Below, in pieces: positions 37,806 through 49,454 of a stretch of DNA of 49,454 nucleotides (positions are counted from its first letter, which is position 1; each line of letters opens with the position of its first letter). Location of the stretch: positions 1 through 49,454 of the IMG/VR virus record IMGVR_UViG_3300009954_000001; one strand, 5' to 3'. The notes below the pieces were generated by a model. The model was not told the DNA's origin, did no database searches, and saw only the letters and a list, made by a program, of their open reading frames with translations. Source of the stretch: a virus. A program made the translations under genes and the position numbers.

Positions 37806-38831
37806 TTACTTAGATTCTACCAGCTTCACGATGCCATCAGCGTCCTGCTCGACAACCAGCTTACCGACAATCAGCTTGCCGTCCTCACCGAAAATCGAGC
37901 AAGCGCCGTCGAGACGGGTCTGGCACAGTCCGACAGCCATAGCGCCCGATTCCGTGAGGAAGTAGTCGCTGCCGTTGTACGACAGCCAGCCGGTGCGCAT
38001 AGCGCCGTTTTCCTCAAGGTAGTACCACTTGCTCTTGACGAGCTGCCAGCCGGTCTGCATCTGCCCCTTGTCGTTCAAGAGGAACCAGTGCTCACCGACC
38101 TTCACCCAGCCAGTCTCCATCTCACCATAACGCCCATCGTGGACATCATGCAGGAAATACCAGTGACCATCGACGTGCTGCCAACCGAACTGCAACCAGC
38201 CCTTCTCGTTAGCGTAGTACCACTTGTCGCCCACAGGGAACCAGCCAGTTTCGTAGCCACCGTCTTCAGTACGGTACCACCAACCACCATTCTGCGACAC
38301 CCAACCCTCCTTCTCGGACAGGTCAGCATCAAGGTTGTCGTAATACTGCTGGGCCTTCTCGATGTACTCGTTCGCATACGTGTCACGCAGCGAGGCAGGG
38401 CACATCGTGGAGTAGAAGTCGCTGTGGGGGAACACATTGACTCGCCACTCAGGACGACCCAGACCATACGCACGACACAGAGCAGCAGTCAGATGCGCGC
38501 CCGCGTCGATGGTGGCCTCACCGACATCCCAGCCGCCCTCAGCGCCCGTCGAGTTCGCGTGCTCAATGCCAATCGACAGCTTGTTCACACCTGGGCAGTG
38601 CCATGCAGTATCCCAGTCGTGGACATACTGCGCAATAGCGCCGTTGATGTCAACATCGTAGTGCGCAGACGTACCATTGCCGCTGAAGGCACCGTACACA
38701 TCTTGGTGCGACATGGCCTTGCCAGCGTTGTGGTGGATGATGATGCGGTCAATAGCGTTGCCACCACGGCCCGCATCGAAATTGTCGATCCACAGGTTGT
38801 AGTCGGCGGTCAGGTCAGTCCAACTGATCAT
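37806..38831 (-). CDS. Endolysin: N-acetylmuramoyl-L-alanine amidase + choline-binding-type (CW_binding_1) repeats
   Basis: Amidase_2 signatures IIIHHNAG and HSDF..TMCP. About six GW-x-Y/F repeats (e.g. TGWVKVGEHWFLLNDKGQMQ). Confidence 0.9.
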   Translation of the reverse strand: MISWTDLTADYNLWIDNFDAGRGGNAIDRIIIHHNAGKAMSHQDVYGAFSGNGTSAHYDVDINGAIAQYVHDWDTAWHCPGVNKLSIGIEHANSTGAEGGWDVGEATIDAGAHLTAALCRAYGLGRPEWRVNVFPHSDFYSTMCPASLRDTYANEYIEKAQQYYDNLDADLSEKEGWVSQNGGWWYRTEDGGYETGWFPVGDKWYYANEKGWLQFGWQHVDGHWYFLHDVHDGRYGEMETGWVKVGEHWFLLNDKGQMQTGWQLVKSKWYYLEENGAMRTGWLSYNGSDYFLTESGAMAVGLCQTRLDGACSIFGEDGKLIVGKLVVEQDADGIVKLVESK

Positions 38832-47612: not shown

Positions 47613-47834
47613 TCAGCTGTACACCCGGATAGGGTCAATCATCGACTTAGCGATCTGGGCAAGTTCTTCATCAGTGTGGATGTCACCCGTGTACGACACC
47701 CAGCCTCCGAGCTTGCTCACTTTAAAGAAGCGGTGCGCCGCGATCTTAACGACAGCCCCGTCCTTGAGGGCTGTGGTGTCGAACTCCCTGTAATCGGTTT
47801 CCTTGCAATAACCGTAAAAGCTGGTTTCAGACAT
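47613..47834 (-). CDS. Hypothetical protein (73 aa), first gene of the leftward arm
   Basis: ATG 47834 after ACGAAAGGAGAACAAA. Downstream of promoter 47861-47890. Confidence 0.55.
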   Translation of the reverse strand: MSETSFYGYCKETDYREFDTTALKDGAVVKIAAHRFFKVSKLGGWVSYTGDIHTDEELAQIAKSMIDPIRVYS

Positions 47835-47860
47835 TTTGTTCTCCTTTCGTTGATGTCTTA

Positions 47861-47890
47861 AGTATAGAAGGGTGGGATGGTAGAAGTCAA
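47861..47890 (-). promoter_or_regulatory. Leftward promoter TTGACT-18-TATACT
   Basis: The - strand reads ttgacttctaccatcccacccttctatact. It is bracketed by inverted 8-mers agggtggg (47869-47876) and cccaccct (47911-47918). Confidence 0.5.
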
Positions 47891-47937
47891 GATAGTAGCA
47901 TGTGATTTGACCCACCCTATTACCCCGTTACCACCCG

Positions 47938-47988
47938 AATACGCAAAGGGGTATGGACTAGTAGCCAGAAAATACGCAAAGGGGTATG
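47938..47988. repeat. Two 18-bp direct repeats AATACGCAAAGGGGTATG, 33 bp apart
   Basis: Copies at 47938-47955 and 47971-47988 are identical, read directly. Confidence 0.85.
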
Positions 47989-48374
47989 ACACCCCCTCCA
48001 TCTTTACACTTACTCAGCAATTGATTTTTTAGTTGCTTATTTTTACCCTTCCTTTACCCACCTGTCAAGCGCCCTCCCCGCTCCCCAGCTCCCTACCCGG
48101 CCCATATCCATACACTGACCCCGGGTCACTCATGGACCCATGACCATACCAAAAATGTGACCTGCCCCATACCGATATTAACCGGAGGTCAATTAACAAA
48201 ACTTAGGCTACCCTAACCAACCTTAGCTCATCCTATGTGCCTCACCTCACACTACCCACCAAAGTCACACAACCCACAACCTGCAACCTACCAAGCAACA
48301 ACAACAAACCAACACGAACTAGCATGATCTAGCAATATGCCTAGTACCCGAAACGCCTCACGTAAAATACCCCT

Positions 48375-48550
48375 CGAAACTTCTAATTTCTACTCATTTT
48401 TATTGTGTGTAATACACTCCAGTAAATAAGAACAAAAACACGAAAAACGATTATACAATAAAGAATCTATATACGTGTATTTATTTCTATACTTGATTAT
48501 TATCTATTACTATTAATATATTTATTTATTATATTTATTTATTTCTTAAA
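48375..48550. other. AT-rich island (~175 bp) inside the G-depleted non-coding region
   Basis: Runs such as tatttatttctatacttgattattatctattactattaatatatttatttattatatttatttatttc, with sharp composition borders on both sides. Confidence 0.8.
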
Positions 48551-48969
48551 CGACGTACCTAGGCGTACGCGCGCGAGATTATCGTCAGAGTGACGTTAAT
48601 GTTGAGAATGATTCTCATTATCAGTCCTTCCCCTCCTGAATTGTCCTAACATTTACGCTACGCCCCCTCTCACGCCCTTTCACCCCCTCAGAGCTACCCA
48701 CATACTACTCACCCCCTAAAAGTCCCTCAAACGGCCTTCCAGGCCCCTTAAACGCCCCCTCCCACCTCAACTCTCCCTCCCTGACTCTCCCTACCCACCA
48801 AAAACCCACGCCCTGCCTACGCGAGTAACATACTCTCCCTACAAAGTCAACACGAACACAAAAAGTATCCACACTGTGAGATGTCTAGTTCTACCCACAC
48901 ATTTTTACACTGGCACTGTCGCACGCTAACCAAGCCACAGAATGTTACCAACGACACACCAACAAACTA

Positions 48970-48998
48970 TTGACATTCTTCCTCCTTACTGATAATCT
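48970..48998 (+). promoter_or_regulatory. Rightward promoter candidate TTGACA-17-TAATCT
   Basis: TTGACA 48970-48975 and TAATCT 48993-48998. Confidence 0.4.
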
Positions 48999-49077
48999 GC
49001 CAGGGTCACCGCCCTAGGTATGTCTACACAACGAAGCACAGATGCCGGCCTGAGACCAAGGCCACACCCTTAGCCTA

Positions 49078-49106
49078 TTGACGGCATGGCCTGTCGATGC
49101 TATTTA
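49078..49106 (+). promoter_or_regulatory. Rightward promoter candidate TTGACG-17-TATTTA
   Basis: TTGACG 49078-49083 and TATTTA 49101-49106. Confidence 0.35.
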
Positions 49107-49175
49107 CACGCGTGTTCCTTATCCCCCTACTGTCGCTAACCAACCCAAATGTGACGCGGTTCACACGCTGTCAGC

Positions 49176-49204
49176 TTGACACGGCCACCAGGGGGCGATA
49201 GACT
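49176..49204 (+). promoter_or_regulatory. Rightward promoter candidate TTGACA-17-TAGACT
   Basis: TTGACA 49176-49181 and TAGACT 49199-49204, 40 nt upstream of ATG 49245. Confidence 0.4.
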
Positions 49205-49244
49205 GTAGTCACAAGGTCAAACACCACACCGAAAGGTCACACTC

Positions 49245-49454
49245 ATGTCCGCTCCCTACCTCATCATTTCAGACACACTCACCTCCTCCCCGCGCACGTC
49301 GCCGGTCTTCGCTGCTGACTACGCCACACTTAAAGGCTGGTTTGCGCTTACGCCTGGCTTCACCGCCTACGATGCCGCAAAGTGGGCACAGCGCGCCGAG
49401 CGCGCGGCGCACGGCGACCGACAGGCCATCGCTCAGCTCGATGGGGCCGGCTTC
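49245..49454 (+). CDS. 5' part of a 75-aa hypothetical protein (continues at 1-145 through the junction)
   Basis: ATG 49245 after GAAAGG. The frame is open to the window end (70 codons) and continues in phase into base 128 of the window start. Confidence 0.5.
   Translation, partial: MSAPYLIISDTLTSSPRTSPVFAADYATLKGWFALTPGFTAYDAAKWAQRAERAAHGDRQAIAQLDGAGF
49328..49454. repeat. Terminal redundancy, copy 2 (identical to 1-127)
   Basis: Same 127-nt string as the window start, and it reaches exactly to the last base. Confidence 0.95.

Follow-up and report, generated by a model that had tools for sequence, protein, structure and literature searches.

The G-poor tract and its surroundings

The IMG/VR virus record IMGVR_UViG_3300009954_000001 is a viral DNA of 49,454 nucleotides, analysed here over its whole length (hereafter the window), and the subject of this report is a non-coding, G-poor tract of about 1.3 kb near its right end, which an earlier note, made from the sequence alone, had placed at 47916–49244. 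The first 127 nt of the window are identical to its last 127 nt, therefore the window is a circularly closed assembly of a phage genome of about 49,327 bp, a property that the earlier note had overlooked; an identical contig is present as JGI 3300022571 Ga0248011_1021. The + strand genes run from the ATG at 49246 over the circle junction to about 17.2 kb, the − strand genes run from 47836 down to 17.3 kb, and the two gene arms converge at 17.2–17.3 kb. The tract lies between the starts of these arms and is the sole divergent intergenic region of the genome. The rightward gene arm codes for an SNF2 helicase, a dCMP deaminase, a Cas4-like exonuclease, an AAA_24 (Sak4-like) protein and SSB, as well as a 788-aa primase and a family-A DNA polymerase (PolA). 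The leftward gene arm contains small genes, three tRNAs (the only ones called by ARAGORN, at 42.6–43.1 kb), a dUTPase, an amidase with choline-binding repeats, the terminase and structural genes, and a 1757-aa open reading frame (ORF) of this arm would, by size and position, be the tape-measure protein.

The ORF-free interval extends from the start of the leftward ORF at 47836 (or 47915, if the ORF is extended to a GTG) to the rightward ATG at 49246, and the longest start-to-stop ORF in it has 55 aa, in agreement with the claim that no ORF of at least 60 aa exists across about 1.3 kb. Between 48000 and 48960 the + strand is composed of A.299, C.329, G.116 and T.257, with a GC skew of −0.48. 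This strong G depletion had been pointed out before, and it stands up to quantification, as 11.6% G compares with 24.3±2.9% (minimum 17.5%) in 960-nt windows elsewhere in the window, where the skew is −0.066±0.10 (minimum −0.26). The low number of G per 60-nt line was confirmed as well, with counts of 1–8 and 3 G in the quoted line 48241–48300. The windowed skew analysis that had been proposed as a check marks the tract as exceptional, while the other non-ORF DNA of the genome, when pooled (1382 nt), is normal (22.6% G, skew −0.11). At the 200-nt scale, all windows with less than 13% G fall within 48081–48580 or 48581–49000, with no value below 13.5% elsewhere. The bounds of the depletion are sharp, because the four-fold degenerate sites of the nearest flanking genes are near-normal, with a + strand skew of just −0.05 and −0.14. 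The depletion over 48000–48960 is real but not uniform, since two G-depleted arms (about 48070–48400 and 48636–48960) are split by an AT island (48401–48550) and a palindrome block of normal composition (48551–48635). The G content is 11.0% in 48000–48400 and 10.9% in 48620–48960, the latter with 41.9% C and a skew of −0.59.

The elements of the tract are listed below from left to right; fractions of 18 refer, here and throughout, to an alignment of the window with 17 relatives (57–71% nucleotide identity).

47861–47890, − strand: PL (TTGACT-18-TATACT), the promoter of the leftward gene arm; downstream lie an AGGAGA Shine-Dalgarno sequence and the start ATG (47836); from a promoter scan
47938–47988: two copies of the 18-mer AATACGCAAAGGGGTATG, 33 bp apart (at 47938 and 47971), which are operator-like ATAC-N8-GTAT palindromes
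48017–48068: conserved boxes TTGATTTTTTAG (in an AGCA...TGCT inverted repeat) and CTGTCAAG, from the conservation profile of the alignment
48070–48400, + strand: G-depleted arm I (A.31, C.38, G.11, T.19)
48401–48550: AT island, 80–88% AT, the most AT-rich stretch of the genome
48551–48635: GC clamp CGTACGCGCGCGAG and palindrome slot, 85 bp of balanced composition (G.24)
48636–48960, + strand: G-depleted arm II (C.42, G.11)
48970–48998, + strand: PR0 (TTGACA-17-TAATCT), a rightward promoter in 8/18
49078–49106, + strand: PR1 (TTGACG-17-TATTTA) with an upstream TGc extended −10; the block CTATTGACAAC...GTGCTATT is found in all relatives
49150–49165: perfect palindrome TGTGA-N6-TCACA, directly upstream of the −35 box of PR2
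49176–49204, + strand: PR2 (TTGACA-17-TAGACT), the main rightward promoter, in 17/18; first ATG at 49246

Conservation in an uncultured phage family

Relatives were retrieved with the 97-aa product of the first conserved rightward gene, which yielded 23 IMG/VR and 23 metagenome loci that belong to one phage family with genomes of about 46–53 kb. The family contigs (IMG/VR, ENA) come largely from human oral and Human Microbiome Project (HMP)-type samples, and three of them were binned into metagenome-assembled genomes (MAGs) of Actinomyces or Atopobium. The G-poor tract is present, in the same orientation, in every locus with sufficient upstream DNA, and the comparison with related phages shows that the skew and a large part of the sequence have been retained in 17 of the 17 aligned relatives, all of which share the ORF-free layout. 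The possibility that relatives carry ordinary genes at this position had been raised; a consistent ORF was found in none of the 18 genomes. A hidden or decayed gene was rejected on the same alignment, in which the longest ORFs (43–87 aa) vary in strand among the genomes and the indels are not multiples of three. Outside the family, megablast and blastn of the tract and tblastn of the neighbouring 97-aa protein against 50,697 phage records gave no match, and neither the phage family nor a tract of this kind was found described in literature searches.

The architecture is kept within narrow limits. Arm I measures 314–346 nt with 8–13% G and a skew of −0.49 to −0.68, arm II 269–356 nt with 9–13% G and a skew of −0.48 to −0.62, and the AT island 135–151 nt with an AT fraction of 0.73–0.88. 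Conserved islands of arm I include GTGACC, TAACAAAACTTAGG..CCTAAC and the short GCAAC/GAACT repeats, whereas those of arm II are AATTGTCCTnnCATTTAC, CACCCCCT (twice), GCTACCCACATAC, CCCCTTAAAC, GCGAGTAACATAC and TATCCACAnTGTGAGATGTCTAG. The conserved alignment columns are mostly C and A, and T is depleted there as well as G. Family-wide, the recurrent motifs are CACCCCCT, CCCTAA/CCTAAC and CTACCCAC, and the three CACCCCCT copies of the genome all lie within the tract. The triple occurrence of ACTCTCCCT emphasized in the earlier note is genuine (48770, 48784 and 48832), but the spot is poorly conserved. Inside the AT island, 48451–48550 reaches 88% AT, which is 6.8 standard deviations (SD) above the genome mean of 48±6% (the next highest value is 67%), and a conserved + strand −10-like box, TATACT/TATAAT, is found at 48488–48493. 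The content of the palindrome slot differs between relatives: the window has the perfect palindromes CGTCAGAGTGACG and TGAGAATGATTCTCA, other members (L004–L026, at the equivalent of 48578–48620) have GTTAAC-N3-GTTAAC, two copies of TGCATAATATGCA, CGTCAnnnTGACG or ATACCCC..GGGGTAT, and L013 has an array of about 200 nt of CTTTACCTTCC, with 5% G, in place of the palindromes. The sequences give the impression that modules are exchanged, perhaps to suit a DNA-binding protein that itself varies.

On the left flank, PL occupies the same alignment position in 18/18 family members, and the 18-mer palindrome occurs in 1 to 3 or more copies among relatives. Its right copy overlaps the invariant GGTATGACACC, which belongs to the hairpin GGGGT-ATGAC-ACCCC (47981–47995). 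The terminator-like hairpin at 47978–47998 was rejected as a terminator, because its loop GGTATGACACC is invariant and it overlaps the operator-like repeat; a protein-binding site appears more likely. CTGTCAAG reads TTGACAG on the − strand; however, the spacing between the boxes TTGATTTTTTAG and CTGTCAAG varies, therefore they do not form a consistently spaced promoter. A leftward promoter TTGACA-18-AAAAAT (48068–48039) was likewise discarded as a family feature, with the spacing to any −10 kept in 5/18. On the right flank, an ATGTG..N..CACAT palindrome is conserved in relatives at the spot upstream of PR2, where the TGTGA-N6-TCACA of the window corresponds to the CRP/GlxR-type consensus. The description of the region as a divergent control region holds for PL and for PR1/PR2, but the third of the rightward promoters originally listed, at 48970–48998, is present in just 8/18. 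The suggested regulatory site arrays find their counterpart in the operator-like palindromic sites.

A number of further observations concern individual blocks and neighbours of the tract. On the − strand the conserved block at 48866–48890 reads CATCTCACAGTGTGGATAC, of which 11 bases, TCTCACAGTGT, equal the extreme left terminus of T7 DNA, probably by chance, and its + strand contains TATCCACA, the DnaA box core. The first gene of each gene arm is variable (47613–47836 and 49246–146 in the window): the 73-aa leftward first gene is missing in L003 and the first rightward ORFs differ among relatives, which fits a mosaic 'leading' region. L003 (the same contig as L023) also carries an insert of about 300 nt between PR2 and the first rightward ORF (reverse complement, about 930–650) that is not in the window. 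It ends in a tRNA-like T-arm and acceptor with CCA (...GGTTAGGTTCAATTCCTAACCGGCTCACCA) followed by TTTTT, and L016 has related sequence; ARAGORN and Rfam give no call for the insert, which may be a tRNA-like or other structured RNA. In the late genes (17.3–36 kb), four-fold degenerate third positions have 47% T and 8% A on the sense strand, and the bias is much weaker in the replication genes (26% T, 17% A). The endolysin gene (37806–38831, − strand) combines Amidase_2 with choline-binding repeats, and its cell-wall-binding part has its closest matches in Granulicatella and mitis-group streptococci. The data suggest an oral Gram-positive host, probably an actinobacterium.

Possible functions of the tract

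The large terminase subunit TerL is 37–42% identical to that of Amigo, CMP1, CN1A and Kradal, and the matches of PolA (~35%) and of the 788-aa primase (~28%) fall in the same few actinophages, namely Arthrobacter Amigo-like phages, Clavibacter CMP1 and CN1A, Streptomyces Kradal-like phages and Curtobacterium phages. Exact direct terminal repeats were verified in Amigo (1584 bp), CMP1 (791 bp, annotated 'terminal redundancy'), Kradal (1053 bp) and CN1A (952 bp, as published in PMC3853054). The repeat is non-coding in three of these four phages (CMP1, CN1A and Kradal), and that of Amigo carries four genes. In CMP1 and CN1A an ORF-free repeat lies between two gene arms that both read inward from the ends. 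The gene order of CMP1 is collinear with that of the window (small genes, nucleotide metabolism, terminase, portal ... tape measure), and its opposite arm matches as well, with primase, ssb, exonuclease, annealing protein and helicase. If CN1A is joined head to tail, it would have a non-coding divergent junction of 1406 bp, as compared to 1330 bp in the window. Owing to this synteny, the tract is by position the counterpart of the CMP1/CN1A terminal-repeat junctions, a location that had been overlooked in the earlier note. The CN1A repeat (L109/L110, junction ~780–1000) also contains a consensus promoter, TTGACA-17-TAAGAT, which is followed by about 200 nt of C-rich, G-poor DNA (skew −0.25 to −0.45) on the sense strand of the replication arm, with the same polarity as arms I and II of the window.

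A second line of evidence is the lack of self-structure in the single strands of the arms. With DNA parameters, arm II has a minimum free energy (MFE) of −9.4 (+) and −13.4 (−) kcal/mol per 300 nt, which makes it about 3.4 SD less structured than the genome (−39.6±8.8 and −42.6±8.7 kcal/mol), and for arm I the values of the two strands range from −19 to −24 kcal/mol per 300 nt. In Kradal, the inner half of the repeat is 5–8 SD less structured than the genome of that phage, while the single strands of the CMP1 and CN1A repeats are not unusually unstructured. Positions 151–450 of T7 are likewise unstructured (−10.6/−15.6). They overlap the SRL region of T7 (161–400), a CCTAAAG array with 10.8% G and a skew of −0.44 on the sense strand. 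This array adjoins the left terminal repeat on its inner side, and phiOL, an AT-rich stretch and the host promoters A1–A3 follow downstream.

The composition of the tract, its sharp bounds, conservation, architecture, lack of self-structure and synteny with terminal-repeat phages suggest that it is a conserved, composite, cis-acting element that acts at the DNA level as a genome end (concatemer junction) and/or a replication start, a tentative reading to which we assign a probability of roughly 0.4. As part of it, we read the phage as a siphovirus that packages its DNA with direct terminal repeats. The core, at which the duplex would be opened or cut, would consist of the AT island together with the GC clamp and palindromes, and negative supercoiling generated by the outward-firing PL and PR1/PR2 would favour melting at this core. 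The arms, which are A+C-rich on one strand and G+T-rich on the other, would keep normal stability as duplexes, and their single strands would form no G-C hairpins and few A-T ones. Long single strands may arise via unwinding, exonuclease resection or incomplete end replication of a terminal repeat. Being free of structure, they could stay open to SSB, the Sak4-like AAA_24 annealing protein and primase, all of which are encoded in the rightward gene arm, and thereby help with end-to-end annealing into concatemers or with primosome loading. An extension of the same idea is that the arms are an evolved 'reduced-alphabet' module, in which one strand is restricted to A and C with some T so that both single strands are hairpin-free, selected because ends or origin exist as long single strands. 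We consider this doubtful. If it held, weaker cases of one principle, which has not been described as a class of phage cis-elements, would be seen in the SRL array of T7 and in the inner part of the Kradal repeat.

Several points weigh against the genome-end or replication-start interpretation. It is drawn from assembled contigs, and the nucleotide sequence of the tract matches no phage record. The GC-skew switch expected of a bidirectional origin is missing at the AT island, since arms I and II share one polarity. The G-rich strand carries clustered G-runs that could fold into quadruplexes, which sits badly with selection for structure-free strands. The extreme composition is not general to the repeats of the clade, because the skew is weak in the CMP1 repeat (+0.14) and in the whole CN1A repeat (−0.06) and their strands are normally structured. 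Finally, the G-poor array of T7 flanks the terminal repeat rather than lying inside it.

The contig ends of the family are neutral in this respect. Overlaps of 127 and 55 nt at contig ends equal assembler k values and speak neither for nor against a terminal repeat; in 29 contigs, a conserved motif of arm II is found a single time each, and each contig carries the tract once. Contig ends were therefore dismissed as a means of finding a terminal repeat. Contig ends do cluster to the right of the tract (~120–1000), as in the window and a Logan SRR3657277 contig (at 123/127) and in L003, L012, L014, L021, L024, L087, L091, L092 and L101–L103, and those of L090, L094 and L104 lie inside the AT island (48401–48550). 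Strain mosaicism or low coverage is a likelier cause than physical termini, because these ends are not at one coordinate.

The replication origin proposed in the earlier note gains from the unique AT island with its flanking GC clamp, palindromes and short repeats, but loses from the missing skew switch. Neither a recognisable initiator gene nor a regular iteron set was found, and short repeats of about 10 nt (GCAACGAACT) are seen in some relatives. One conserved TATCCACA box is located at 48866; however, DnaA-box-like 9-mers occur in the window at chance frequency (26 observed vs 21.5 expected), for which reason DnaA boxes were not counted as evidence of an origin.

Other explanations of the arms make different use of the same data. 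They could be a series of sites bound by a protein with sequence specificity, for instance the small terminase (for which pacL-pacC-pacR of SPP1 is a precedent), an early regulator or a partition-type protein, with the C/A-richness being simply the composition of the motifs (CACCCCCT, CCCTAAC, CTACCCAC and TTGTCCT). Strand-specific short motifs are indeed present 2–4 times per genome, with reverse complements almost never found, the confinement of CACCCCCT to the tract agrees with such arrays, well-conserved islands alternate with variable spacers, the two arms flank a central core, and palindrome modules swap among relatives as if matched to a changing protein. But the variable, unalignable spacers hold the same composition (13% G) and the L013 insert is a different repeat, CTTTACCTTCC, that is equally G-free (5% G), so that the composition is not confined to a single motif; nor was a partner protein identified, and we regard this explanation as unlikely. 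The arms might alternatively function through RNA, as a long C-rich, G-poor, unstructured and untranslatable rightward transcript that loads Rho (as a Rho utilisation (rut) site or insulator ahead of PR) or serves as a leader. The rut site envisaged in the earlier note is sound as far as the RNA itself is concerned, since the C/G ratio is 3–4 over each of the two arms of about 330 nt, where a segment of about 80 nt would suffice, and + strand RNA folds weakly (MFE −36 and −40 kcal/mol for 325–331 nt), and the conserved TATACT/TATAAT box as well as the CN1A promoter with its C-rich, G-poor downstream DNA of the same polarity point in this direction too. Its weak point is transcription: no conserved promoter of the sigma-70 type points rightward into arm I, the only sigma-70-like promoters with universal conservation, PL and PR1/PR2, all fire outward, so that the arms lie upstream and not downstream of them, and no outside transcript enters the tract because the two gene arms converge at 17.2–17.3 kb. 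For arm II, the −10-like box of the AT island is the only possible source of transcripts, and promoter matches there are what 80–88% AT gives by composition. In addition, T is depleted together with G in the conserved columns, which rut sites do not need, and we hold an RNA-level role to be improbable. A non-coding RNA, which had also been suggested, finds no support, with no Rfam match (E≤1) for the tract of the window or for relative L003 and folding no better than that of dinucleotide shuffles (z-scores: arm II, −0.74 (+) and 0.00 (−); arm I, −0.84 (+) and −0.10 (−)).

A purely mutational origin would require a − strand that is persistently single-stranded, in a stable D-loop, an R-loop or a resected end, with deamination of C and A driving the skew and selection acting on the embedded motifs only. 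In composition the tract (A.30, C.33, G.12, T.26) resembles the L-strand of vertebrate mitochondria, and strong directional mutation bias also predicts mostly C/A conserved columns, which is why these columns were discarded as proof of selection. Such a process would, however, have to stop at the edges of the tract, where the flanking four-fold sites are near-normal, arm lengths and composition vary little across 18/18 genomes, and no conserved promoter was found for the leftward R-loop that would be needed; the chances of this explanation appear slim. A G-quadruplex (− strand, as the earlier note had suggested) or i-motif (+ strand) switch for the divergent promoters or for replication fares worst and seems very improbable. 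C-runs are clustered, the window has 2 canonical − strand motifs, G4Hunter windows at or below −1.5 exceed shuffles in 10/18 genomes, and 0/200 shuffles reach the observed G4Hunter count in 8 genomes. Nevertheless, the shuffle control mixes in the AT island, so the excess is overstated, and the canonical four-run motif (loops of 7 nt or less) is found in just 9/18 family members and absent from the other 9, its positions not being conserved.

This family of phages of about 50 kb is abundant but uncultured, and the tract is its main non-coding control hub. If it holds the ends or the origin, it would provide coordinates with which to orient genomes, predict the first-entering genes and build replicons or packaging substrates. 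Moreover, its extreme, conserved and sharply bounded asymmetry is a natural test case for selection on single-strand structure at phage ends.

Comparison with known systems

The closest systems are the terminal-repeat actinophages. The window shares TerL, PolA and primase with CMP1 and CN1A, along with an ORF-free region of similar junction size between divergent arm starts, and it resembles Kradal, where the inner half of the repeat is strand-asymmetric and structure-free. It differs from CMP1, CN1A, Kradal and Amigo in having no nucleotide similarity to them, and while the duplication of virion ends is proven for these four phages, the evidence here comes from assembled contigs. Rut sites are similar in their C-rich, G-poor and unstructured + strand, but the arms are several times the typical length, they are depleted of T too, and their transcription lacks conserved-promoter support. 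In lambda ori, T7 phiOL/phi1.1 and the T4 R-loop origins, transcription close by activates an AT-rich unwinding element. The tract is like these origins in its AT island beside a GC clamp, palindromes and short repeats between promoters, and unlike them in its long G-poor arms, the missing skew switch and the lack of a detectable initiator or regular iterons.

The tract represents a known kind, the non-coding hub between divergent phage arms, and is probably a terminal-repeat or origin region. What is new is its extreme compositional form, as no known family accounts for the composition. The left end of T7, a podovirus with its own RNA polymerase and genes unrelated to those of the window, has a single G-poor tract of 240 bp, whereas here two arms of about 330 bp stand on either side of an AT core. 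In both cases, however, a gene-free G-poor tract lies upstream of tandem strong early host promoters and is adjoined by an AT-rich stretch, and the CCTAAC/CCCTAA repeats of the window resemble the CCTAAAG of T7. As a test case, the tract described here could help to assign a role to the long-unexplained G-poor repeat array beside the T7 terminal repeat.

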